From the sequence record ON075799: a stretch of DNA of 64,000 nt; one strand, given 5' to 3'. This stretch comes from Escherichia phage vB_EcoM_TH18. The notes under the pieces were generated by a model that saw nothing but the letters and a program-made list of their open reading frames with translations, was not told where the DNA came from and did not search any database. The position numbers were made by a program, and so were the translations under genes. Shown piece by piece: positions 30,218-43,486 of this stretch. The stretch's first letter is position 1; each line of letters begins with the position of its first letter.

Positions 30218-31759
30218 TTAATTCTCTAAATTAGAAACAGAATTATCCCTCACTGTTGATATTTTTGATGTTCCGTTACCTGTTGACCCCGGAGTCATCC
30301 CATCCCCAGAACGACTTACATCCTGACCAAGAATTTGCAACAACTCCTCAAGATCCATATCTTCTGGGATTTCTTCGTCAAAACCACCAACCTCAAGAAT
30401 TTTATTAATAACTGTAGGTGTTTTAGGCAAATATCCAACAGCACCGATACGCTGAACAAATTTAGAGAATCCTTCCATATCAACTTCTTGAATAAGCCCA
30501 GGTTTTAATCTTGGCATATCTTCGTCAGATAATCTTATATCATTCAAAGCAAGAAGTTGGGGTATTAAGTTCTTATTGAACGCCTCGGTAATAATATCAA
30601 TATCTCTCTGGACAAAATGACCATGGATAGTTTGTTTTGATTCTGAAAGATTATAAGATCCCTGCCCGTCGTTACCTAAGTTAATAAACCCAGCACCAAA
30701 GCGATCAAGAATAGCCTTCTTACGAGAATTAACAAGCTCTTGAGTGCTGTATTGTTTACCTGCCCCATCTATCCCTTTGAGAGACATTTCATATTGTTTA
30801 CCACCTTGGTTATTGAGATCAGATGGTAAAATAAAGTAGGCTTGTTCTCCAGCATGTGCGTTAGCAGCATCTGCCATTAGTCCTTGCACCATAGCAGCTT
30901 CTGGTGATGTTGGGTCTATTGCTGCTTTATTAAGGATCTGGGAAGGTATTTTAAGTTCTATGATGCCACCAAGATCTTTAGATGCCCCAATAGTCTCCAA
31001 ATTTTCTATAAGGATCTTCTCTCGGAATGCCCTATAACAACCTACTAACGGTGATACCCCAGCCGGGTTGGATTCCGTACCTCCCAAACTCATTATCATC
31101 AACTTATTAACTGGAATAAAAACATCATCACCATTAGTTAATTTACGGATAATGCTTAAAGTGTCACCTAGCATTCCGTTTTGTAAATTAGAGAAAGCCA
31201 AACTGCTTTGGTTAATGCCCTTCAGCGTCTTGCCATCGGCATCAAATACCCAAGGCTTTGATCTGGAAAGACTGCACTGCGGCCTGAATGCAATTTTATC
31301 AATCGTAATATACCCAGCATACCTTGAAGTATCTGGCTCAGTACGATAAACTTTTTCAAATATCGAAAACCCATACTCATTGAACGTTGCTGCGCTTCTG
31401 GCTATATCACGCAGAGTTTGTTGATTAGCAAGATTCTTCAGTGCATACTCCACAAACTCAGCAGCTTTCTTAGATTTTCTGCTATCTCTGTTATACAAGA
31501 TTTTAAAATCATTGAATGCTTTGGTTACAAAGACATATTTTGTATCAAGGGCTGTGGAAACTGTGTGGTCTTGCTTCATGGCTTCAACAGTGGCGATGAA
31601 ATTAGGCCATCTCAACTCCTTAACTTTCATAATCTCTGATTCAGCCCTAAGTTGAGAAAGAGCACCAGAGCCTAACTCCCCAGTGCGAAGACGACTAACA
31701 GCAAGTCTCTCATTACCTGCTTTAGAAATCTCTTCTTGTTGTGCAAATCTTGTTGACAC
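30218..31759 (-). CDS. Portal protein (513 aa)
   Basis: Size and position immediately downstream of large terminase. Confidence 0.6.
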   Translation of the reverse strand: MSTRFAQQEEISKAGNERLAVSRLRTGELGSGALSQLRAESEIMKVKELRWPNFIATVEAMKQDHTVSTALDTKYVFVTKAFNDFKILYNRDSRKSKKAAEFVEYALKNLANQQTLRDIARSAATFNEYGFSIFEKVYRTEPDTSRYAGYITIDKIAFRPQCSLSRSKPWVFDADGKTLKGINQSSLAFSNLQNGMLGDTLSIIRKLTNGDDVFIPVNKLMIMSLGGTESNPAGVSPLVGCYRAFREKILIENLETIGASKDLGGIIELKIPSQILNKAAIDPTSPEAAMVQGLMADAANAHAGEQAYFILPSDLNNQGGKQYEMSLKGIDGAGKQYSTQELVNSRKKAILDRFGAGFINLGNDGQGSYNLSESKQTIHGHFVQRDIDIITEAFNKNLIPQLLALNDIRLSDEDMPRLKPGLIQEVDMEGFSKFVQRIGAVGYLPKTPTVINKILEVGGFDEEIPEDMDLEELLQILGQDVSRSGDGMTPGSTGNGTSKISTVRDNSVSNLEN

Positions 31760-31774
31760 GAATTATCCCCTCTG

Positions 31775-32560
31775 TTATATTCTTTTATACAAGGTAGGAG
31801 CTACAATTTTTGGAATAACAACAGGTTTGACTATTTCTTCTTTTTCAAGATAATTTATCCCAGAAGAAATGGCGTCGACCCAATCGTCTTTTCTTGTCGT
31901 TGTACTCCTTTCCCCATTGAACTTTTCAAGCTCTGTCATAAGGGCTTCATAAGTTTTAGGATCAAAACTATCACGAACTATTCTCACCATACCTGCTTGA
32001 GCAAGTTTTGCAAAAGGTGTAAATCTTGTTAATTTTGATTTATTGGTTGGTGTAGGATCTTTTTCTACTGTAAATCCTTCCGCTATTAGTTCACGAGAGC
32101 TTGTTAAAAATTCACTTATTCCTGCTTGTCCTGGGTCAACACTGAAAATTATGGTAACATCATCACCATCAAAATAAGCCTGTTTCTTAATGATAACATC
32201 ACGTTCCCCAGCTTTTTTACAGAATCTCCCCTGCGTTTGAGTTGAATATCTACCATCATCAAAAAATTCAGGACAATAATCACCAGACAAATAGTAAAAG
32301 CCATCATTGTCTTTACTTACCTTAACAGATGCTGTAAAGTCAGGATATCTGTTTCCAGATGTTCTTTCTGTACCTGCTTTATCATACGGACGAACAGATA
32401 CAACACCGAGAGGTAAGCAGGGAACCTCTTTTAAATAAGATCTCTGGAAATAGTTTGCCCCTTCAGGTCTTGCGTTCCAGTTTCCATGCAATAACTGGGC
32501 TTTTTCTACCTCTGGAAGACCTTCAAGGAATGCTAGATAATCTGGGTTATTCTCCAGCAT
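31775..32560 (-). CDS. terL: Terminase large subunit, exon 3 (nuclease domain; 5-prime boundary approximate)
   Basis: Open frame continues upstream of the listed Met; acidic motif KDDWVDA near C-terminus; preceded by group I intron core. Confidence 0.6.
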   Translation of the reverse strand: MLENNPDYLAFLEGLPEVEKAQLLHGNWNARPEGANYFQRSYLKEVPCLPLGVVSVRPYDKAGTERTSGNRYPDFTASVKVSKDNDGFYYLSGDYCPEFFDDGRYSTQTQGRFCKKAGERDVIIKKQAYFDGDDVTIIFSVDPGQAGISEFLTSSRELIAEGFTVEKDPTPTNKSKLTRFTPFAKLAQAGMVRIVRDSFDPKTYEALMTELEKFNGERSTTTRKDDWVDAISSGINYLEKEEIVKPVVIPKIVAPTLYKRI

Positions 32561-33575
32561 GGGAGGATTATCGAATCCTTGTATTCAAGGTTGGACGCAA
32601 CGCCAACCCCCGCACCACTACGTGCTGCTGCATGTCACCATGCAGAGTAGACTATATCACCACCCACACATAATGGGTGCTTCGCTTTTCGAACGCCATT
32701 AGCTTGCGATCTACTCCCTTGCGGGATAGTCGTTGAACTACATTACCATTCATAGTTGTTTGAGATATAGATGTAAGTTTTTCTATCTTTTATTCTTCTA
32801 ACAAGATTAAAACTAACACCCCATTTTTTAGATATCTTATTAATGCTTAGGATACCGTCTCTCAGATCTTCACATATCCCTATAACTTTGGATTCACTAA
32901 TTCTGTTGGAAGAAGGAACCATCCTGAAATTAAACTCTTTAGAAATGTCTGGGTAGACTCTCCCAGCTTTGATACTACTAACCACAGTCTGCCCAATACC
33001 AAACATCTCACTGATATCCTTTACTCTAGCACCCTGCTCAAGTAATCTGCATATCTCAAGGGCAGTGTTATCATCAAGAGGCCTGTAACTGTTTACATAA
33101 GACTTCTTAAGCCCTATTTCATGTGCGTGATGTGTGCTTTCCTTTGCAGTTGTCCACTCAAGATTCCACGCTGCGTTATTAAGTTTGTTTCCATCTAAAT
33201 GGTTCACTTGAGTTTTTGTATCAGGGCTATCATTCTCGACAAAAGCAAAAGCAATAACCCTATGGACAAGAACTTGAAACTTTTTACCATCCTCACACAA
33301 CGTTAACATTGCATAGCCAGTTTTCTTATGGACATTAGGATGTAAAAATTTGTGGGAATACAAACTATAAATTCTTCCATCATACGTCGCACAATAATGG
33401 GAATACCCTAAAAATCCTAAATTTTTCATCTCAAACATTCTCCCTACTACAGTTTCGGAAAAGTAATTATAGCTGCTGATTGCCCTTATACAAAGGGTTT
33501 CCCAGCAATTAACGAAGTTATTCGACATGCATTACTGCATGAAGCCACTATTCTTTTAATGGTTGCGGAAATGAA
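32561..33575 (-). mobile_element. Group I intron 2 carrying an HNH homing endonuclease ORF (boundaries approximate)
   Basis: Minus-strand reading shows P-like AAUUGCUGGGAAA, P5 hairpin, Q-like AAUCAGCAGC upstream of ORF, and R-like GUUCAACGACUAUC plus S-like GAUAUAGUCU downstream, giving P7 pairing GACUA/UAGUC. Confidence 0.65.
32743..33438 (-). CDS. HNH homing endonuclease (232 aa from MFEMKNLGF…)
   Basis: Typical N-terminus (KNLGFLGY…YDGRIYS) and HNH motif VNHLDGNKLNNAAWNLEW; SD AGGGAGA upstream of Met; lies inside intron between P/Q and R/S elements. Confidence 0.75.
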   Translation of the reverse strand: MFEMKNLGFLGYSHYCATYDGRIYSLYSHKFLHPNVHKKTGYAMLTLCEDGKKFQVLVHRVIAFAFVENDSPDTKTQVNHLDGNKLNNAAWNLEWTTAKESTHHAHEIGLKKSYVNSYRPLDDNTALEICRLLEQGARVKDISEMFGIGQTVVSSIKAGRVYPDISKEFNFRMVPSSNRISESKVIGICEDLRDGILSINKISKKWGVSFNLVRRIKDRKTYIYISNNYEW

Positions 33576-33914
33576 GGAAAATGAAAGCGGTTTAGGCTTT
33601 CTTTTCTCATCCTTGCCATCCCAATACTTTTCAATTAATTCTTGCTCTGAGTCACCCCAGATAAATTCTCCGTCACGTCTTATAAACCATCTAATCACCC
33701 CATCTCGTTCAGGTATAGGATATCCCTCATCGTCTAAATACCAAGAAATCAACTCCTTAATCTTATGATCTGGATCAGGGTTACAAGAGATAACCATCCT
33801 GCTCGGATATTTAGAGTTTGAACGTAGACGAGATATCAGATAATCTATCTGTGACCATGTGAATTGTGTTCCCTCATCAAAGCCGATGAAGGTATACTGC
33901 AACTTATTGTCCCC
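33572..33914 (-). CDS. terL: Terminase large subunit, exon 2 (Walker B region; boundaries approximate)
   Basis: Hydrophobic stretch ending in FIGFDEGT (Walker B-like), then ISCNP (coupling-motif-like); no ATG start; flanked by intron cores. Confidence 0.6.
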
Positions 33915-34141
33915 TCAGTTCGCTACACTGAGGCGGTGTGCCAAGACACCCGCCACATGTTTCCATGTGGAACAGACTATATCTTCCATCCTTGGCGTGC
34001 CGTTTGGATCACCAATCGCTTGTGATTCTACTCTCCTACACTCATCGGAGATAGTCGTTACACCCAGATTTTATATTTCCATATTCTGTGGCACGGTATT
34101 TTCCCATAGGGAGTTCCACCGTTATAGGCACGAAGGGCAAG
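33903..34141 (-). mobile_element. Group I intron 1, ORF-less (boundaries approximate)
   Basis: Minus-strand reading contains R-like GUGUAACGACUAUC and S-like AAGAUAUAGUCU (near-consensus), several hairpins, no ORF; separates Walker A and Walker B coding segments. Confidence 0.6.
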
Positions 34142-35512
34142 CTATTCACCCTGATGATCTAATTTGTTATTCTCATACTCCATGTGTCTCCACAACACCT
34201 TTGCCCCAGATGGGAAAATTGCTTCCAGAGCTTTCTCCCTGAACTTCGGCTTCCATTCCTTATCGAGTTGCAAATAAATACTTTTTGCTGTATCAAAAAG
34301 CCCACCTGCACCTGTCAATTGAGGTGTTGTCCTACGAAACATTATACATGCTGTCTGCGGGTCATCGACATAAGCAAGCGGCATCAATTGTAGGAGATAT
34401 GATTTTCCACTATTCCCAGTGACAACCACACAATCTTCTAGTCTGGTAACAAAGAAACCTGTTTGTGTTACAAAGCAGTATTTAAACCCATCCGTAGGTA
34501 TAAACTCTTTAAACTCAGCTTTTCTGTCTTTATTAGCCAGTGACCTTAATCCTTTTCCTCTAGCCATAATATTAACAGTATAACTGTCCTTTCCACTTCT
34601 TGTATCATGGTTTATGGTGGTATTATAACCAAGAGAAGATCCTACAAACTGAACAAAATCAGCGTTCATCTTATGGACAGTAAAATATCTACCTGTAAAG
34701 CTGTTATGTGTTTTACCGCCATATGGCTTACAAAAAGAACCATCCCAATGAAAAATCTCATCAAGTATTATCTCCAGTTGTTCATTTGAACACTGATAGT
34801 ATTTCTCTGTAAATTTTTTATCAGGATATTTAGGCCATACAATAACCTCGTACTGTTCCCCAGTGGTATATCTTTCACTGGGTTTTGATCCTCTATCTTC
34901 ATATCTTAATCCAAACTTTTTACAAAGTTCGATTAAGCGGTCATATTTACGCTTTTTAGCAAAGCGCATCTGTGTATAATTATCTTTCCCTTCTTTAACA
35001 ACTCTCCCATCAGCCATGACAGCAACCTGAAGCCGTAATTCCCCTTCTGTCATGTCTATCCCAGGACCATCATAGTTAAATGTAGTTATGAACTTACCTG
35101 TCCAACCTTTTTTAACAGAGTTGTTATGTCTTTCTGCCACTTCAGAAAAAGAAAGTGTTCTTGGCTGTGATTTATAGTCTGGTTTATAAATCACAGTATG
35201 TTCGTCAGATAGCTCTTGACAAATGCCATTACCTTCTATTCTTGTAAGTTTTTCGCAAGGGAGTTTAACAAACTCTAAAGGGGGGATAAATTTAGCCTCC
35301 CCAGTGGCTTTGTCATATTGCAGAATGTCCTGCCCTGACCATTCTGATATCTTAATCCAGCCAGATGGTGTCAACACCTCGTGGTCTTTAGACAAACACC
35401 CGGCGGCCCCACCAATTATTAGAATTTGGGCTTTACTCTCCAAAATCATTTTTTGCTTAGGACTGGCAGGTCCAAATACTTTACTCAAAAGACCTCCATA
35501 TTTTCTATTCAT
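34142..35512 (-). CDS. terL: Terminase large subunit, exon 1 (N-terminal ATPase segment including in-frame intein)
   Basis: N-extein ends IIGGAAG; C-extein resumes SGKSYLL, restoring Walker A GGAAGSGKS. Confidence 0.7.
   Translation of the reverse strand: MNRKYGGLLSKVFGPASPKQKMILESKAQILIIGGAAGCLSKDHEVLTPSGWIKISEWSGQDILQYDKATGEAKFIPPLEFVKLPCEKLTRIEGNGICQELSDEHTVIYKPDYKSQPRTLSFSEVAERHNNSVKKGWTGKFITTFNYDGPGIDMTEGELRLQVAVMADGRVVKEGKDNYTQMRFAKKRKYDRLIELCKKFGLRYEDRGSKPSERYTTGEQYEVIVWPKYPDKKFTEKYYQCSNEQLEIILDEIFHWDGSFCKPYGGKTHNSFTGRYFTVHKMNADFVQFVGSSLGYNTTINHDTRSGKDSYTVNIMARGKGLRSLANKDRKAEFKEFIPTDGFKYCFVTQTGFFVTRLEDCVVVTGNSGKSYLLQLMPLAYVDDPQTACIMFRRTTPQLTGAGGLFDTAKSIYLQLDKEWKPKFREKALEAIFPSGAKVLWRHMEYENNKLDHQGE
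34412..35398 (-). mobile_element. Intein (about 329 aa) inserted in the terminase Walker A P-loop
   Basis: Begins CLSKDHEVLTPSGWIKISEW (intein block A-like), ends …VVTGN followed by Ser; size suggests nested endonuclease, with weak LAGLIDADG-like segments (AVMADGRV, ILDEIFHWDGS). Confidence 0.65.
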
Positions 35513-35583
35513 ACCATAGAGGGTAGTTTACCACGAATAACGATAAAAATAAAGCCCTTATCATTAAATAAGGGCATTGTCAA

Positions 35584-35877
35584 CTATTTATCTGAAGTAA
35601 ATATTGTCTTTACATACTGTTGTAGCGTTCTTAATTTCATACGATCTTCAGCAGCCTTAATGTTGTTTTTCTTGATCACCTCTATAGCATCCGCATTACT
35701 AAGACCACCTGGCAATTTTTCAGGTTCTTTCGGTGGTATCATAGCTTCAGCGGGTGGTCTTGCTAAGATATCGCTTATTATGATCTCTTTTGCAACAGGA
35801 ACAACTCTCTCAGGCGGTGAAGTGCACCCTGTTAACATCAATAATAGAAAAGGAACCATGATGACACACTTTTTCAT
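35584..35877 (-). CDS. o-spanin-like outer-membrane lipoprotein (97 aa)
   Basis: Signal peptide with lipobox-like LTGC, Pro-rich mature part; starts 4 nt inside upstream i-spanin-like gene. Confidence 0.55.
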   Translation of the reverse strand: MKKCVIMVPFLLLMLTGCTSPPERVVPVAKEIIISDILARPPAEAMIPPKEPEKLPGGLSNADAIEVIKKNNIKAAEDRMKLRTLQQYVKTIFTSDK

Positions 35878-37899: not shown

Positions 37900-37975
37900 T
37901 GGTGTGACGGACAGGATTCGAACCTGTGACCACCTAGTCTTCAGCAAGGCACTCTACCAACTGAGTTACCGTCAC
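37900..37975 (-). tRNA. tRNA-Phe (anticodon GAA)
   Basis: Hand-folded cloverleaf: acceptor GUGACGG/CCGUCAC, T-arm ACAGG-UUCGAAU-CCUGU, anticodon loop CUGAAGA, CCA encoded. Confidence 0.75.
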
Positions 37976-37980
37976 ATAAT

Positions 37981-38057
37981 TGGTGGGCGATGAGGGACTC
38001 GAACCCCCAAAATTCAGGTTCTAAGCCTGACATGTATACCAATTCCATCAATCGCCC
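37981..38057 (-). tRNA. tRNA with anticodon UAG (Leu by anticodon) but class I architecture
   Basis: Acceptor GGGCGAU/AUCGCCC, anticodon arm UCAGG-CUUAGAA-CCUGA, 5-nt variable loop, A73, CCA encoded. Confidence 0.6.
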
Positions 38058-38305
38058 ATCTATATTAACAGTTATGGTTTTCCACGATACACAGAAATAG
38101 TTTTCCCATTAGCATTGATAACATAAGCGGTCTGATCCTCAGACAAAAACACTTTTTGATCAATGCCGGAAATAGCTATAGACTTTTGATGAGCACAATA
38201 CCCAACAATTTTCCCACAAAAAATTTGTTCATCATTTGGAGAGACGACTTTAACTGTTAACATGGTATCCTCTGTACATTTCTGCTTTGATATGTTTATG
38301 TTTGT

Positions 38306-38383
38306 TGGTCTGTCCGGTTGGATTTGAACCAACGACCTGGTCATCCCAAGTGACCCGCGCTACCCAAGCTGCGCTACGGACAG
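38306..38383 (-). tRNA. tRNA-Pro (anticodon UGG)
   Basis: Acceptor CUGUCCG/CGGACAG, anticodon loop CUUGGGA, T-arm GUUGG-UUCAAAU-CCAAC. Confidence 0.75.
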
Positions 38384-38467
38384 AGAAATGTAGATTTTAA
38401 TTGTCCCAGAATCTACTAACTGGTATCGCTGGCTAGGTGATATCTGTGACTTGATTAAGTCAAGAAT

Positions 38468-38559
38468 TGGCGGTTCCTGAAGGATTCGAACCTTCGGTGG
38501 GGAGATTCATTCCCAACGGCTTAACAGGCCGTCACCATCGACCACTCGGTCAAAGAACC
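38468..38559 (-). tRNA. Class II (long variable arm) tRNA with anticodon GUU (Asn by anticodon)
   Basis: 92 nt; acceptor GGUUCUU/AGGAACC, D-arm with CCGAGUGG, anticodon arm ACGGC-CUGUUAA-GCCGU, 20-nt variable arm, T-arm GAAGG-UUCGAAU-CCUUC, G73, CCA. Confidence 0.6.
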
Positions 38560-38568
38560 TGAATATTT

Positions 38569-38645
38569 TGGTGGATCTGGTTGGGGTCGAACCAACAATC
38601 TCTCGATTAAAAGTCGAGTGACTTAAACCATTTGGCTACAAATCC
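38569..38645 (-). tRNA. tRNA-Lys (anticodon UUU)
   Basis: Acceptor GGAUUUG/CAGAUCC, anticodon arm CUCGA-CUUUUAA-UCGAG. Confidence 0.75.
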
Positions 38646-38878
38646 GTTAAATTATCTTTAAAATAGCTAATTACTCGCACATAATTAGCTATACGCAACA
38701 ACTCTCCAAGGAGAGCACACTAATGATCGATTACGATTATATGACTAAATTTAGACCATCATAAGTGTTTGGCTTACGCCAGTAAAGAGCGGACTGCTCT
38801 GGGGTATCGGTAAGATGGTTGCAGCCATCTACCGAAAAATCACACCAAGCAACTAAACAAGCTACATTAAAGATAACT

Positions 38879-38967
38879 TGGAGGAGGCTGACAGAATCGA
38901 ACTGTCACCATATCTCTACAGCGGGACTGGGTTCAAACCAGCTTGTGCACCATGCACCCCAGCCTCC
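38879..38967 (-). tRNA. tRNA-Ser (anticodon UGA), class II
   Basis: Acceptor GGAGGCU/AGCCUCC, anticodon arm GCUGG-UUUGAAC-CCAGU, long variable arm, T-arm GACAG-UUCGAUU-CUGUC. Confidence 0.7.
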
Positions 38968-39038
38968 AAAGATAGCCTCTGCCGAGGATATACACCCAAC
39001 AAAGGAGGCGCTCAGGTCAGAAGAAATCTGAGCCTTAA

Positions 39039-39132
39039 TGGAGGAAGATGCCAGACTTGAACTGGCACACCCATTTCTGGGTTACTATCTCCTTAGCAGG
39101 GAGATCCCTTACCAAATTAGGGTTAATCTTCC
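39039..39132 (-). tRNA. tRNA-Ser (anticodon GCU), class II
   Basis: Acceptor GGAAGAU/AUCUUCC, anticodon arm UCUCC-CUGCUAA-GGAGA, long variable arm, T-arm GCCAG-UUCAAGU-CUGGC. Confidence 0.7.
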
Positions 39133-39153
39133 AATACCTTAGTAATTAAAAAC

Positions 39154-39243
39154 TGGTGGAGAAGGAGAGAATCGAACTCTCAAGCCGTTTTACCAGTCAG
39201 CACATTTCCAATGTGCTTTCGTCGCCAATCGATTTGCTTCTCC
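39154..39243 (-). tRNA. tRNA-Ser (anticodon GGA), class II
   Basis: Acceptor GGAGAAG/CUUCUCC, anticodon arm GCACA-UUGGAAA-UGUGC, T-arm GAGAG-UUCGAUU-CUCUC; D-arm irregular. Confidence 0.65.
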
Positions 39244-39252
39244 GTTTTAACT

Positions 39253-39328
39253 TGGCAGGGGATGGTTGATTCGAACAACCGATCACGGGGTCAAAGCCCG
39301 TTGCATTAGGCCACTATGCTAATCCCCT
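39253..39328 (-). tRNA. tRNA-Gln (anticodon UUG)
   Basis: Acceptor AGGGGAU/AUCCCCU, D-stem GCAU/AUGC, anticodon arm ACGGG-CUUUGAC-CCCGU. Confidence 0.75.
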
Positions 39329-39331
39329 TTT

Positions 39332-39409
39332 GCACGAGAGTGAGGAATAGAACCTCTTAGTCACTGGTTTTGGAGGCCAGCCTTCACCCAGTGAAGTTAC
39401 GCTACTCTC
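39332..39409 (-). tRNA. tRNA-like remnant (probable pseudo-tRNA)
   Basis: Acceptor-like GAGAGU/ACUCUC and T-arm-like GAGG-UUCUAUU-CCUC, but no canonical anticodon arm. Confidence 0.2.
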
Positions 39410-39417
39410 ATTAAAAA

Positions 39418-39975
39418 CTATTTTCGAAAAGGACTTATGAAAAATGCCAACATCACTCTCTCTCTTGAAAAAGCTCTGTCTTCAGGAACCACACTCTTCA
39501 GTTTCCAACCGACATAAATTCGCCAGTAAAATTGTTTTCCAAACAATCTAAAAGACGGGACAAACGCGAATACACCCCACGCATTGTCATTCCACATCAA
39601 CAAATAGCCTTGTTGGTTATCCTCCACATCAGAGCTTACATGGAGGTTTCCTTTCCACTTTGTCACAGATGTGATTTCACGTCCAAGTACGTGATAGGAG
39701 AAATTGTAGGCTTTATTTCTCCACAACCAAGCAACTCGTTGTAGGTAAACACCAAAACTTCCTATTTTACGGACTTCTTCCCATCTCTCTATGTGTCCTC
39801 TATCACCGTCTATAGGATTATCATATGTCTCCATCCACCTGAAAATATAAGGCAGATGCCCTGTCTTCTCATTATAGAACGGAACAACAAAAGGAGCCAG
39901 AATAACACAGAGAACCGACATAACTGGGTCAAGAGGTGCTAACAGGATCCACGATAAATATTTTAAGTATCTCAT
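39418..39975 (-). CDS. Hypothetical membrane-associated protein (185 aa) embedded in tRNA cluster
   Basis: Hydrophobic N-terminal helix; Trp-rich. Confidence 0.35.
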   Translation of the reverse strand: MRYLKYLSWILLAPLDPVMSVLCVILAPFVVPFYNEKTGHLPYIFRWMETYDNPIDGDRGHIERWEEVRKIGSFGVYLQRVAWLWRNKAYNFSYHVLGREITSVTKWKGNLHVSSDVEDNQQGYLLMWNDNAWGVFAFVPSFRLFGKQFYWRIYVGWKLKSVVPEDRAFSRERVMLAFFISPFRK

Positions 39976-40327
39976 GCAGGATCAAGCCTAGATATAATGT
40001 ACTGGTTTAAATCTGAATATGGGAAGATACTTTCAAAGATAACCTGTTTAAATCTGAAGCCGCACAAACCGAAAAGTACCTTCTGACACTCACCAAAAGA
40101 GCAATCTTTACCAACTTTTATCACAACCGTATCGGCAATCTGCACACTTTCTATCTCTTTAGATTCATGATGCCGTACTATGATTACTTTAGAAACCATC
40201 ATACTCGTCCATATTAAAGCCTTCTACTAAAGATAGTAGATGTCTAGGGTTGGACCGCAAACGCAACCCCATGGAATTTGTTACGGTCTTCAGTTGACCC
40301 AAGCGGATTTCATTGACATCTTTTAAC

Positions 40328-40402
40328 TGGAGCATCCAGAGGGTATCGAACCCTCGACTTCAGCTTGGAAGGCTGTAGTTTTCCCAATTAAACTATGGAT
40401 GC
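40328..40402 (-). tRNA. tRNA-Gly (anticodon UCC)
   Basis: Acceptor GCAUCCA/UGGAUGC, anticodon loop CUUCCAA, T-arm GAGGG-UUCGAUA-CCCUC. Confidence 0.7.
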
Positions 40403-40407
40403 ATATT

Positions 40408-40483
40408 TGGTGGGAGTGGTAGGCTCTGCCCCTACGTCCTCTCGATTATCGGTCGAGCGATCTACTAACTGATCTACACTCCC
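40408..40483 (-). tRNA. tRNA-shaped gene, anticodon GAU (Ile by anticodon), with non-canonical D-, anticodon- and T-loops
   Basis: All four stems perfectly paired, but T-loop is GGCAGAG (no UUC), D-loop AGUUAGUA lacks GG, anticodon loop CCGAUAA has C33. Confidence 0.55.
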
Positions 40484-40551
40484 AAACTGTACTGGCCCAA
40501 CAACCACGATTGGAGGGTATCGTCACACATCAAAGCCAGTACAGTTTTAGT

Positions 40552-40641
40552 TGGTGTGCCGTGATAGAGTCGAACTACCCGAGTCCCTTTCGAGACAGGA
40601 GATTTACAGTCTCCCCCGCTACCCCTACGGTCTAACGACAC
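40552..40641 (-). tRNA. tRNA-Tyr (anticodon GUA), class II
   Basis: Acceptor GUGUCGU/ACGGCAC, anticodon arm GGAGA-CUGUAAA-UCUCC, long variable arm, A73. Confidence 0.7.
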
Positions 40642-40642
40642 A

Positions 40643-40990
40643 TTAACCTTGTTTGAATTGAACAATATCCGTCGAGAACGGTTTAGCTGCCTTAATAGGT
40701 GCTTTTTCTGAGTTATCTTTTTCGAGTAACTCTTCGTTTTCCTCATCAAAGTAATCAGAAAGCATCTGCTCACCTTTCTCAATAACATAACGAGCTATAT
40801 TTTCTCTGATATTGTCTTTTGTATTCACATTCTTCATCAAATCCCTAAGAACCTGATGAGCTTCAGGAATCATTGCAATCAGATTCGTTTTTAAATCTAG
40901 GATATTTTTCTCTAACTGAATTGCATTAGATTCCTCTTTCAGAGGACGACCTTTTCCTCTTCTACGTTTTGTAAGCTGCTTAGTAGCCAT
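40643..40990 (-). CDS. Hypothetical basic/acidic protein (115 aa from MATKQL…)
   Basis: ORF trimmed to Met downstream of a consensus sigma70 promoter; longer listed ORF would overlap tRNA-Cys. Confidence 0.4.
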   Translation of the reverse strand: MATKQLTKRRRGKGRPLKEESNAIQLEKNILDLKTNLIAMIPEAHQVLRDLMKNVNTKDNIRENIARYVIEKGEQMLSDYFDEENEELLEKDNSEKAPIKAAKPFSTDIVQFKQG

Positions 40991-41009
40991 TTTAAAACCC
41001 CACTTAATG

Positions 41010-41038
41010 ATATTATCAAATAAAAACATATCTGTCAA
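41010..41038 (-). promoter_or_regulatory. Consensus sigma70-like promoter on minus strand (TTGACA, 17-nt spacer, TAATAT)
   Basis: Minus-strand reading TTGACAgatatgtttttatttgaTAATAT, about 20 nt upstream of ATG at 40990. Confidence 0.55.
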
Positions 41039-41075
41039 GTGGTATTTTAACATATTTACCAAGAAATTGAAAGTT

Positions 41076-41152
41076 TGGAGCACGGTGTCGGACTTGAACC
41101 GACATATATCTGTTTTGCAGACAGATCCGTAACCAAATTCCAGCAACCGTGC
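41076..41152 (-). tRNA. tRNA-Cys (anticodon GCA)
   Basis: Acceptor GCACGGU/ACCGUGC, anticodon arm UCUGU-CUGCAAA-ACAGA, T-arm GUCGG-UUCAAGU-CCGAC. Confidence 0.7.
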
Positions 41153-41228
41153 AATAAGTACCCCAGGTAGAGAACCTATAGAGTGGGTCTTACGAGCCGC
41201 GCTGACGATTCTCAAGTTGGGGTTAATC

Positions 41229-41305
41229 TGGTCGAGGAGACAGGATTCGAACCTGTGACCTACGGCTTAGAAGGCCGCTGCTCTATCCAACTGAGCTACA
41301 CCCCG
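41229..41305 (-). tRNA. tRNA-Arg (anticodon UCU)
   Basis: D-arm GCUC-AGUUGGAUA-GAGC, anticodon arm GCGGC-CUUCUAA-GCCGU, T-arm ACAGG-UUCGAAU-CCUGU; acceptor has one U-U mismatch. Confidence 0.7.
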
Positions 41306-41505
41306 AAAATAAGAATGCTTTATAGTGTATGGTTACTCAACCTCACTCCAACTTCCACAGTTGGTGCTCTACGAGCATGACTACGTTTGAAATCAACGTT
41401 GCGCACCGATAGCTTTCTCACGCATTGTATGCCTCATTCCCAACAAATGCTGATCAGACATTTATATCGAATAATATAAGCTAATACACTATAAAACAAA
41501 CTTGT

Positions 41506-41602
41506 GGCTGGGTGATGGAATCGAACCACCTATGTATTCAACGGCTTCCCCGTCTATTTTCAGGATTATAAATCCTCGCCCTTGCCAAAGGGCTTACCCA
41601 GC
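41506..41602 (-). tRNA. Atypical 97-nt tRNA-like gene (possible anticodon UAU) with about 30-nt extra segment
   Basis: Canonical acceptor GCUGGGU/ACCCAGC, D-arm GCCC-UUUGGCAA-GGGC, T-arm GGUGG-UUCGAUU-CCAUC; anticodon region is a 4-bp stem with loop UUUAUAA followed by 30 extra nt; CCA not encoded. Confidence 0.35.
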
Positions 41603-41604
41603 AT

Positions 41605-41679
41605 TGGTGCTCGCAGCAGGTTTCGAACCTGCAACCCCCTGCTTACAAGGCAGGTGCTCTACCGTTGAGCTATACGAGC
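41605..41679 (-). tRNA. tRNA-Thr (anticodon UGU)
   Basis: Acceptor GCUCGUA/UGCGAGC, anticodon arm CCUGC-CUUGUAA-GCAGG, T-arm GCAGG-UUCGAAA-CCUGC. Confidence 0.75.
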
Positions 41680-42044
41680 AATAAGACATTGCTTCCGATT
41701 AACAGCCTTGAGGCTTTACAGACCATATCTTGTGAGCCATAACCTGTGCCAAGGATTTCAGATGATAAACGAAATTTTATCTTTCAAGAGTCAACTTTCA
41801 AGTTTCATCTTTTACATTTAACCATTGACCTTTATTGTATGAACTTTTACTTAGTGGAAACAACAAGGCATCTTCGTGTGCCTCGCTGCATCTATGTCCT
41901 GTATTATCCTCATACATATACGATACATGGTGGGGGATATTTAACCTCCAACCCCCAGGAGGCAAGATGATGTAAACTTCGTTAATCAAAAGCAATGTTT
42001 TAAATTTCAAAACAAAGGAACGATAATGATATTATCAGAGCCTT

Positions 42045-42692
42045 TTAGAGAGAGTGCTCAATCTCAATTTCTGTCTTAGCGTTTGACTCAGACAACGCAA
42101 AATCAACGTTAGACAAGAAATCTTCAATCTCTTCTTCAAGAGAACGAATCTTAGAAGCCAGTTCAAGAGGATCCACAACCGATGGTGTGTTCATCATTCG
42201 AATAGGAGCTTCCACAGTCTTAATCTGCTCTGCATCTGGCGCTTTATCACGTTGGATATATGGCGCTCTTGCATTTTCAAGTTTATCTTCCAGAGATTTT
42301 TCTTCTTTTGCCAGAAGAAGCTGTGCAGAAGCACGCTGTGCACAAAGTTTGTTTAACAACTCTTGTTTAAAGCAAATCGTCCGTTTGCGTTCGATTGCCT
42401 CAGCAACTGTCATAGACACATTACCAATTTTGACAATTGTCTCAGCATTAGACTTAACAATTTTTGCTTTCAGTTCATCACGCACTGCCAAGAGGTCTTG
42501 CAGACTTTGATAGTCGTTGATCGCAGATTTCTTAAAATCATCAACAGAGCCGATATAACCCGGAATCTTACAATTATTCTCAGTTCCTTTTGCAATCTTA
42601 ATACAATCAAGATTGTAGATACGCTTATTGATCTTATCTTCAATTTTAGAGATAGAAGCAAGTGCACGAGTTACGGAAATCTTAGTAGACAT
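42045..42692 (-). CDS. Hypothetical protein (215 aa)
   Basis: ORF with coiled-coil-like charged regions. Confidence 0.4.
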   Translation of the reverse strand: MSTKISVTRALASISKIEDKINKRIYNLDCIKIAKGTENNCKIPGYIGSVDDFKKSAINDYQSLQDLLAVRDELKAKIVKSNAETIVKIGNVSMTVAEAIERKRTICFKQELLNKLCAQRASAQLLLAKEEKSLEDKLENARAPYIQRDKAPDAEQIKTVEAPIRMMNTPSVVDPLELASKIRSLEEEIEDFLSNVDFALSESNAKTEIEIEHSL

Positions 42693-43033
42693 GCGATCTC
42701 TCCTATGTAAATCAGCTTTGATAAAGTAACTATCCAGAAAAACAAAAACTATGTCAAGAAAAATTTTAATCTTTTACAGCATCTTTTATAGAATCACAAA
42801 GATCTTGAACAACATCAGATGTCGGTGACAAAATCATCTCGTCGGCTGCTGCTATAGCATCTGATGCTAAATCAACAAACGGAGTTGTTACCGCAGAAGT
42901 CACTTCAACAGCCGTTATTGTTACTTCGCTTGCAATCTTAAGCAAAGATCCTATCATAATCTCAACCCTCCTGAATATCCGTGATTCCCTTTATTTAACG
43001 ACGCTGGCTCACGGTGGCACTCTCGTCAATAAA

Positions 43034-43357
43034 CTATTTTTTAGTTTTCTTACCGTTTTCTACAGAAATGCTTGTTTTCTGTTTCGCTTCTCGTTCGCGC
43101 TTTGTTTTCCCAGTGCGAATACGATATGAAGCAGAAATAACTTCACCACCAATGACACGAGACACAGATTCGTAATACATTTCAGTATTACCGTCTTCAT
43201 CTTTGCGTTTTTTCAGAACTGCTACAGTTTGCGTTTTACCACCAAGGCGCACATCGTGCGGTGCAGAATGTGTCTGCGTGGATTTTGATCCAAACTGAAA
43301 AGGTTGCTTTATCGCCTCGATAGCTGACACCTTTTTAGCAGACTGTTTCTTAGCCAT
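43034..43357 (-). CDS. Hypothetical basic protein (about 107 aa from MAKKQSAKK…)
   Basis: Lys/Arg-rich small protein. Confidence 0.4.
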   Translation of the reverse strand: MAKKQSAKKVSAIEAIKQPFQFGSKSTQTHSAPHDVRLGGKTQTVAVLKKRKDEDGNTEMYYESVSRVIGGEVISASYRIRTGKTKREREAKQKTSISVENGKKTKK

Positions 43358-43409
43358 TAAGTTTTCTCCTCCGAAAACAATAAACATAGTTTATTTCGTG
43401 TGCCACATT

Positions 43410-43486
43410 TGGTGGCCCCTGCTGGACTTGAACCAGCGACCAAGCGATTATGAGTCACCTGCTCTATCCAACTGAGCTAAGGGGCC
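43410..43486 (-). tRNA. tRNA-Met (anticodon CAU; elongator-type or lysidine-modified Ile2 not distinguishable)
   Basis: Acceptor GGCCCCU/AGGGGCC with G1-C72, anticodon loop CUCAUAA, T-arm GCUGG-UUCAAGU-CCAGC. Confidence 0.75.

Follow-up and report, generated by a model that had tools for sequence, protein, structure and literature searches.

The large-terminase gene (TerL) of Escherichia phage vB_EcoM_TH18 is interrupted at 33558..32577 by a sequence that very probably is a self-splicing group I intron of the subgroup IA type, orthologous to the second of the introns in the terminase gene of phage rV5. Coordinates refer to the window, the whole stretch of 64,000 nucleotides analysed here (sequence record ON075799). 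The reading as an intron is supported by the sequence elements, an exact junction, a covarying fold, the family of the encoded endonuclease and a presence/absence polymorphism; we infer catalysis by the intron, the target and cleavage mode of its HNH protein, and homing. An earlier sequence-only reading had proposed just such a second group I intron with an HNH gene in TerL. That proposal was upheld by the exact junction, by covariation, by ORF-less orthologues scoring above the Rfam threshold and by the existence of intron-less alleles. The range that it had given, 32561-33575, encloses the intron but also covers exon sequence, 17 nt from exon 2 and 16 nt from exon 3; the true bounds are 32577..33558.

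Organization of the terminase gene

TerL and all relevant genes lie on the minus strand. The gene was divided as follows (here and below, a slash within a sequence marks a junction).

34148..35512, minus strand: TerL exon 1, which carries the intein and ends ...DHQG; placed by alignment with the TerL of GAP31, SSE121 and FV3
34412..35398, minus strand: 329-aa intein in Walker A (GGAAG/C...VVVTGN/SGKS)
33903..34147, minus strand: ORF-less group I intron 1 of 245 nt, inserted at DHQG/LQYTF
33559..33902, minus strand: TerL exon 2 (LQYTFIGFDEG...SFSFISAT-I), with Walker B; placed by Pfam Terminase_6N and alignment
33558..32577, minus strand: group I intron 2, 982 nt, interrupting TerL
33429..32743, minus strand: gene for an I-HmuI-like HNH homing endonuclease of 228 aa, stop codon included in the range, within the P6 loop of intron 2
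31775..32576, minus strand: TerL exon 3 ((I)FDNPPMLENNPDYL... to stop), nuclease domain; placed by Pfam Terminase_6C and alignment

Removal of the intein and both introns yields a mature TerL of 507 aa. This protein matched Pfam Terminase_6N (positions 1-213/215, 87.5 bits, compared with 38.8 bits for exon 2 alone) as well as Terminase_6C. A phmmer search of mature TerL against PDB sequences gave no match, and the insertion site of intron 2 was therefore placed relative to the Pfam domains alone: the junction falls at codon 241 of mature TerL, in the C-terminal part of the Terminase_6N match.

Excision of the intein restores IIGGAAGSGKSYLLQ (GGAAGSGKS), identical to the sequence in GAP31. The intein runs from C39 to N367 and is followed by S; its penultimate residue is Gly, the usual residue at this position in inteins being His. 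Inserts carried by the primase/helicase and RtcB genes of further phages share 31-43% identity with the element, whose best PHROG match was phrog_32482, labelled PhoH-like (E 1.2e-25). A Pfam search of the exon 1 insert returned no intein domain match.

Intron 1 matched Rfam RF00028 at 34203..33953 (34.1 bits, E 3.6e-6), and its P1, read from the sequence, pairs AGGGU with GCCCU. The P1 assignment by Rfam would put the splice site after AKV-L; this was ruled out by the GAP31 alignment, in which exon 1 runs to ...DHQG. The intron 1 site (DHQG/LQYTF) is empty in Av-05, rV5 and RudolfGeigy, and no close relative of intron 1 was found among 50,697 phage records. Exon skipping has been reported for the TerL of SIOphi (PMC11878797). 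Here, joining the 5' site of intron 1 to the 3' site of intron 2 gives ...GGT ATT CGA TAA, which terminates, so that a functional alternative TerL product is unlikely.

Splice junctions of intron 2

The 5' splice site lies after U33559, which forms the U·G pair of P1, and the 3' splice site after the terminal G32577, a G in all seven aligned orthologues. P1 consists of CCAU/UA with UAGUGG, and its U·G pair is invariant (seven of seven sequences). Ligation of exons 2 and 3 across the intron gives GCA ACC AT/A TTC GAT AAT, read as ...SFSFISATIFDNPPMLENNPDYL...; the predicted ligated exons, SFSFISATIFDNPPML, agree in full with TerL of GAP31 and SSE121, where the gene is uninterrupted, and match that of FV3. 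The frame is thereby restored to ...SFSFISATI/FDNPPML..., towards the C-terminus of the ATPase domain. In a multiple alignment of spliced TerL with the proteins of GAP31, SSE121 and FV3, the junction showed neither a gap nor a surplus residue. A query of 169 aa placed across it aligned in a single piece with the TerL of GAP31 (89.9%) and SSE121 (88.8%), and at ∼ 72% with the uninterrupted TerL of FV3, LL12 and APECc02. Comparison with the intron-less terminase alleles of related phages, a check put forward together with the sequence-only reading, thus fixed the insertion site at SATI/FDNP. The S-like element had been placed about 65 nt before the downstream terminase segment; this figure was incorrect, as the measured gap to exon 3 is 72 nt.

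Conserved elements and fold of the ribozyme

The P, Q, R and S elements announced by the earlier reading, with an HNH ORF between them, are all present on the minus strand and in the correct order. The P...Q pattern (AATTGCTGGGAAA...AATCAGCAGC) lies at 33510..33472 and the R...S pattern (GTTCAACGACTATC...GATATAGTCT) at 32738..32649, both on the minus strand. Each occurs once in the window, whereas 100 shuffles of the window produced neither. When the flanks of R...S were relaxed, exactly two occurrences were obtained in the 64 kb, one in intron 2 and the other in the upstream intron 1.

At gathering thresholds, an Rfam search of the whole window returned 13 tRNAs and nothing else. A permissive scan of 31700..35600 gave three RF00028 matches. 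Two of these belong to intron 2: the 5' half matched at 33568..33361 (21.4 bits, E 0.022) and the 3' half at 32819..32628 (31.6 bits, E 1.9e-5). The half-matches are collinear with the ORF between them, and no single match reached the RF00028 gathering score of 50 bits. It is likely that intron 2 matches only as halves because P6 accommodates an ORF segment of 693 nt, counted from the ATG of MFEM through the stop codon. Orthologues that occupy the same insertion site and are devoid of the ORF scored 95.6 bits (RudolfGeigy) and 71.2 bits (Av-05, where the match ends at the edge of the stretch searched). The outcome of the Infernal/Rfam scan recommended earlier is thus a pair of collinear half-matches below the gathering score for the window copy, and matches above it for ORF-less orthologues.

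To evaluate the fold, we aligned seven sequences: those of the window, rV5 and UAB_1 with the ORF removed, those of WM, RudolfGeigy and C9 as they are, and a reconstructed Av-05 sequence. The model comprised P1, P2, P3, P4, P5, P6, P7, P7.1, P7.2, P8, P9, P9.1 and P9.2. Its parts in the window are listed here, all on the minus strand.

33470..33562: 5' ribozyme half, from the RF00028 half-match of 21.4 bits and pair counts
33562..33545: P1, which takes in 4 exon nt
33541..33526: P2
33517..33512: P3, 5' strand
33507..33474: P4-P5-P4'
33473..33470: P6, 5' strand (GCUA)
32577..32742: 3' ribozyme half, from the RF00028 half-match of 31.6 bits and pair counts; includes P8, P9, P9.1 and P9.2
32740..32737: P6, 3' strand (UAGU)
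32731..32727 with 32654..32650: P7, pseudoknotted with P3
32725..32716: P7.1
32711..32691: P7.2, with two compensatory pairs
32685..32680: P3, 3' strand

Across the seven orthologues, 97.5% of the cells were paired and 19 of the 70 pairs had changed on both sides. Sliding the 3' partner by 1-3 columns as a control lowered the pairing to 33-47%, with 0-6 pairs changed on both sides, and none of 500 shuffles equalled the observed pairing and covariation. Compensatory changes were found in P2, P3, P5, P6, P7.2, P8, P9, P9.1 and P9.2; P1, P4 and P7 were invariant. The window copy of P7.2 contains one U-U mismatch. All features of a group I core that we looked for (P3-P8, the P/Q/R/S elements and the P3/P7 pseudoknot) are present and all helices pair.

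Hairpins P7.1 and P7.2 are the hallmark of subgroup IA, the class defined by the T4 td, nrdB and nrdD introns. Their presence between P7 and the 3' strand of P3 places intron 2, as judged from its sequence, in this subgroup. The 94% identity to T4 td over 36 nt around the S element, described below, is in keeping with this. Within subgroup IA, intron 2 would presumably fall into IA2, to which the T4 introns belong.

The HNH homing-endonuclease gene

The translation of the ORF in the P6 loop contains VNHLDGNKLNNAAWNLEW and matched Pfam HNH_3 with 28.0 bits (cut-off 24.8). Residues 8-101 aligned with the homing endonuclease I-HmuI (PDB 1U3E; E 3e-10), including the His and Asn of VNHLDGNKLNNAAWNLEW, and the ORF matched phrog_59, 'HNH endonuclease', with E 1.1e-46. 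Matches to HTH DNA-binding modules were weak and below the Pfam cut-offs. The protein is 82% identical in amino acids to rV5 ORF65 and 65% to UAB_1 gp127, and close orthologues (at least 60% identity) were present in 27 phage records. In other phages, its relatives reside in a variety of genes and carry the annotation of homing endonuclease.

The ORF probably starts at its second ATG, 33429 (MKNLGF). We favour this start because it is annotated in an identical GenBank record and is common to the UAB_1 orthologue. A GGGAG sequence lies 10 nt upstream of the MKNLGF ATG as against 1 nt from the first ATG (MFEM...). The ORF had been described as having its own Shine-Dalgarno sequence, and a putative ribosome-binding site (GGGAG) is present; what probably changes is the start codon, from the first ATG to that of MKNLGF. 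A scan of the minus strand for sigma-70 promoters did not reveal an internal promoter for the ORF. For each of the three orthologues with the ORF, a hairpin that would sequester the ribosome-binding site was predicted; it contains one compensatory change and showed no excess stability over shuffled sequence (z 0.24, 0.17 and -0.61). Sequestration of this site as in the T4 introns is offered as a suggestion only.

In comparison with the rV5 copy, 120 of the 176 nucleotide differences in the HNH gene fall on the third base of a codon; pN is 0.11 and pS is 0.85. The raw values are given instead of NG86 dN/dS because synonymous sites are saturated. The third-position bias and the low pN relative to pS indicate that the HNH protein is under purifying selection and is not decaying.

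A model for splicing and homing

The TerL pre-mRNA would fold into P1-P9.2, whereupon exogenous guanosine would attack after U33559, the U of the P1 U·G wobble. The freed exon 2 would then attack after the terminal G32577 and the exons would be ligated to ACC AU/A UUC GAU, encoding ...SATIFDNP.... The P6 loop would meanwhile supply the gene for the 228-aa HNH endonuclease, equipped with a ribosome-binding site of its own. At the intron 2 site, alleles that lack the intron have the sequence GCN ACN ATC TTY GAT AAY, the probable target of the enzyme. In a mixed infection, the HNH enzyme would be expected to nick or cut intron-less TerL alleles around it, and repair from the intron-bearing allele would copy the intron into the recipient (homing).

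Relatives and history of the insertion site

The region 31700..35600 is 100% identical to the corresponding sequence of Escherichia phages 18-1-2, 19-1-2 and 24-2-1 (Vequintavirinae, Avunavirus); the record of 18-1-2 gives the respiratory tract of a marmot as its source. As all three of these GenBank entries are 'partial genome' scaffolds, viability of this exact allele is assumed. The 18-1-2 record lists three separate 'terminase large subunit' CDSs and an 'HNH homing endonuclease'. In the records of rV5 and of RudolfGeigy (BASEL collection), TerL is annotated as a three-piece join. Among the relatives, the intron 2 site was found in three states.

Intron with HNH gene: the window phage, rV5 and about 15 rV5-like genomes, and the phi92-like UAB_1
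Intron without ORF: Av-05, RudolfGeigy, WM and C9
No intron: FV3, LL12, GAP31 and SSE121

Three allele states at one TerL site, as deduced from these sequences, would fit a homing cycle. UAB_1 belongs to a different subfamily (Stephanstirmvirinae), and the TerL of its genus is ∼ 39% identical to that of the window. That an orthologous intron and HNH gene occupy the same codon in so distant a TerL argues for horizontal spread. Between the window and rV5, the HNH gene is 82% identical in amino acids and 74% in nucleotides, and the TerL exons are 72-78% identical in amino acids; the similar divergence of intron, HNH gene and exons fits long co-descent. As a separate observation, the Av-05 record appears to show an inversion of the exon 2/intron 2 segment of TerL, which may be an assembly artefact.

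Other readings of the locus

Intron 2 could splice and its HNH gene nevertheless be inactive as a homing enzyme, a relic or a gene with another role, the whole being inherited only vertically. We regard this as rather unlikely. Such a history would agree with the exon-like divergence from rV5, which fits vertical co-descent and not recent transfer, and with repeated loss of the ORF in the close relatives Av-05, RudolfGeigy, WM and C9. A relic would not be expected to show the strong purifying selection seen in the ORF (pN 0.11 versus pS 0.85), nor to keep both its HNH_3 match and the His/Asn motif aligned with I-HmuI. Exclusively vertical inheritance is also contradicted by UAB_1, where an intron and HNH gene at the same site imply transfer between lineages, and intron-less targets still circulate (FV3, GAP31).

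A role of the HNH protein in packaging instead of selfish homing seems highly improbable. HK97-type HNH proteins are packaging cofactors according to Kala et al. (2014) as cited in PMC7344957, the HNH gene does sit inside a terminase gene, and the possibility was raised by the authors of the CB7 study (PMC7344957). The ORF is absent, however, from Av-05, in which the intron flanks are 96-98% identical, and from RudolfGeigy and FV3. Since these relatives have the same TerL and lack the ORF, packaging cannot depend on the HNH protein. The nearest relative with a solved structure, moreover, is the intron-encoded nicking endonuclease I-HmuI, and the annotation of its homologues as homing endonucleases in varied genes points the same way.

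TerL might instead be genuinely split, its three fragments being translated separately and assembling as subunits with the RNA left unspliced, as reportedly happens with the fragments of Aeh1 NrdA, which is split by mobE. The identical GenBank records do list three separate 'terminase large subunit' CDSs, and one HNH-associated intervening sequence in the CB7 study did not splice (PMC7344957). We give this arrangement very little credence, because it leaves unexplained a complete ribozyme core with covariation support, canonical splice sites and an exact restoration of the frame at a junction that lies inside a codon (AT/A). No Shine-Dalgarno sequence precedes the first ATG of exon 3 (CCUCCC AUG), and the first codon of exon 2 is UUG; exon 3 being thus without a ribosome-binding site, independent translation of the fragments is unlikely. 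The curators of rV5 and RudolfGeigy likewise chose a three-piece join. Splicing of intron 2 is therefore the reading that we retain.

Introns 1 and 2 compared

From the R and S cores shared by the two introns, the sequence-only reading had suggested a related origin. R and S are indeed similar, but global alignment of the introns gave 53% identity, local similarity was confined to R, P7.2 and S/P9, and the elements concerned are class-wide. T4 td, too, is 94% identical to intron 2 over 36 nt, and we rejected a common origin of introns 1 and 2 as unsupported. As R, P7.2 and S/P9 are core elements of many phage group I introns, their likeness shows that the introns are of one structural class and is no sign of a specific shared descent. 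The P9 hairpins of introns 1 and 2 are near-identical palindromes.

The claim that three selfish interruptions make an unusual density for one essential gene stands in part: the intein and both introns are real and densely placed, but multi-intron TerL genes have already been published. Judging from the sequences compared, it is conceivable, though we hold it doubtful, that the present allele is the most heavily invaded in the Vequintavirinae and that the ATPase domain of the subfamily has no fewer than three sites for introns and one for an intein, with independent turnover. Were this so, the allele series could offer a natural setting in which to follow how adjacent selfish elements compete and are co-converted, and could be used to test whether P9 palindromes in a pair of introns of the same gene give rise to real inversions.

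Relation to known systems

The identical GenBank records list unjoined fragments; our coordinates allow them to be replaced by one spliced, intein-containing CDS that yields the 507-aa mature TerL. Such models matter for taxonomy and for prediction of the packaging mechanism because Vequintavirinae are studied for biocontrol and therapy. The locus adds to the cases in which homing elements cluster in conserved ATPase motifs of phage genes that are essential, and intron 2 leaves current understanding unchanged.

Like intron 2, the td, nrdB and nrdD (sunY) introns of T4 possess P7.1 and P7.2 and have an endonuclease ORF looped out of the core, and the 94% identity of td to intron 2 over 36 nt is centred around the S element. 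The T4 intron endonucleases are GIY-YIG enzymes (I-TevI, I-TevII) or defective, and their host genes function in nucleotide metabolism, unlike terminase. I-HmuI, encoded by the group I intron in the DNA polymerase gene of Bacillus phage SPO1, has the H...N...N catalytic motif in common with the HNH ORF; the C-terminal half, with two HTH-like modules, and the target gene differ.

The nearest well-described counterpart is the second TerL intron of rV5 (DQ832317), which is at the same site, SATI/FDNP, and carries its HNH gene (ORF65) in the P6 loop. Over the intron and flanking exons, rV5 and the window are ∼ 75% identical in nucleotides, and 86-88% in the ribozyme halves. The two phages belong to different genera (rV5 is Vequintavirus V5, the window phage an Avunavirus) and differ in the site of the upstream intron, which is DHQG/LQYTF in the window and FDEG/T in rV5; exon 1 of the window also contains the intein. 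RudolfGeigy, VB-EcoM-WM, 'Campylobacter phage C9' and Av-05 share site and ribozyme with the window, but in these ORF-less orthologues P6 is closed by a short hairpin instead of carrying the HNH ORF.

The division of rV5 TerL into three segments, one with a homing endonuclease, was described in a section entitled 'Introns in terminase' (Kropinski et al. 2013, PMC3606486). For CB7, also of the Vequintavirinae, splicing of an HNH-carrying TerL intron was demonstrated by RT-PCR and cDNA sequencing (Buttimer et al. 2020, PMC7344957). Two or three group I introns likewise split TerL in Bastillevirinae, where splicing was shown in vitro and in vivo (PMC11878797), and in Jug phages, where it was seen in metatranscriptomes (PMC12880540). 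Lactobacillus phage LL-H, Pectobacterium phage CB7/phiTE (Certrevirus), the Bastillevirinae and the Jug phages all have TerL group I introns, often with HNH genes, but these differ from intron 2 in insertion site or are unrelated to it in sequence. Intron 2 is accordingly already known in kind, site and lineage; only the window allele has so far lacked a joined annotation.

Relatives of intron 2

The 982-nt group I intron 2 of TerL (33558..32577, minus strand), which carries an HNH gene in its P6 loop, has an orthologue in Salmonella phage UAB_1 (OL656106.1, 691..1681). There the intron and its HNH gene interrupt TerL at the same codon as in the window, and the two HNH proteins share 65% amino acid identity. 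UAB_1 is a phi92-like phage (Justusliebigvirus). TerL proteins of Justusliebigvirus are only ≈ 39% identical to that of the window. The downstream TerL exon of UAB_1 is annotated as 'hypothetical protein'.

Part of intron 2 also resembles introns in another gene. Over 75 nt, its S/P9/P9.1 part (32584..32658, minus strand) shares 86.7% identity with an nrdD intron of phi92-like phages, located as follows:

phi92 FR775895.2, 119746..119819: match to intron 2 S/P9/P9.1, in the intron of nrdD (anaerobic ribonucleotide reductase)

Phage 24-2-1 gave a further match to this part of intron 2, in the nrdD region of a different scaffold (OK181862.1, 22067..22128; 90.5% identity over 63 nt). Hence 24-2-1, one of the three phages identical to the window, probably carries a related intron outside the window.

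The same TerL introns occur in many UNVERIFIED 'Campylobacter phage' records (GenBank MG0656xx, e.g. MG065661.1), for which the host is given as Campylobacter jejuni. These genomes are of the rV5-like or phi92-like coliphage type, and their Campylobacter host labels look doubtful.

Other elements of the TerL region

Intron 1 and the intein lie upstream of intron 2 in TerL. The lysis/terminase block is itself preceded by tRNA genes, as it is in rV5 and FV3:

33903..34147, minus strand: intron 1 (245 nt, no ORF), inserted at DHQG|LQYTF
34412..35398, minus strand: intein (329 aa) in the TerL Walker A motif
37903..43486, minus strand: 13 clustered tRNA genes that precede the lysis/terminase block

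The insertion site of intron 1 differs from that of intron 1 in rV5, RudolfGeigy and Av-05 (FDEG|T), being located ≈ 10 codons farther upstream; at the window's site, TerL of Av-05 is continuous (CAGGGTTTGCAGTAT). A sensitive BLAST search of 50,697 phage records yielded no close relative of intron 1 beyond the three identical genomes (phages 18-1-2, 19-1-2 and 24-2-1), only partial matches in the phiEco32-like phages XT18/XT73 and in PhiPA3. Intron 1 is more novel than intron 2 in both sequence and insertion site.

The intein begins with CLSKDH and ends with VVVTGN, followed by Ser; in the penultimate position it has Gly, where His is usual. A Pfam search of the intein gave no match to an intein or endonuclease domain, and its top PHROG match was a family labelled PhoH-like. 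Av-05 matches both flanks of the intein at 96–98%, whereas its middle part is ≈ 260 nt shorter; the Av-05 endonuclease domain is therefore probably different or deleted.

In the Av-05 record (KM190144.1, around the junction 120938|1), exon 2 and most of the ORF-less intron 2 have the opposite orientation to their counterparts in the window. The inversion is bounded by the near-identical palindromic P9 hairpins (CTGCATGG..CATGCAG) of both introns and begins at the circularisation point of the record. If true, it would break TerL. Most likely, it is an assembly artefact.

Possible expression signals of the HNH gene

In the three ORF-bearing orthologues (window, rV5 and UAB_1), a TATAAT box (GCTATAATTAC; 33462..33470, minus strand) overlaps the 5' strand of P6; the ORF-less orthologues have no such box there. 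A promoter scan at this position detected no promoter. Just downstream lies a small hairpin (UUUUCC...GGAGAA; 33429..33460, minus strand), which shows one compensatory change, in UAB_1. This hairpin could sequester the HNH ribosome-binding site, but its stability does not exceed that of shuffled sequence. By analogy, the candidate arrangement of TATAAT box and hairpin would resemble the control of endonuclease expression in T4 introns.
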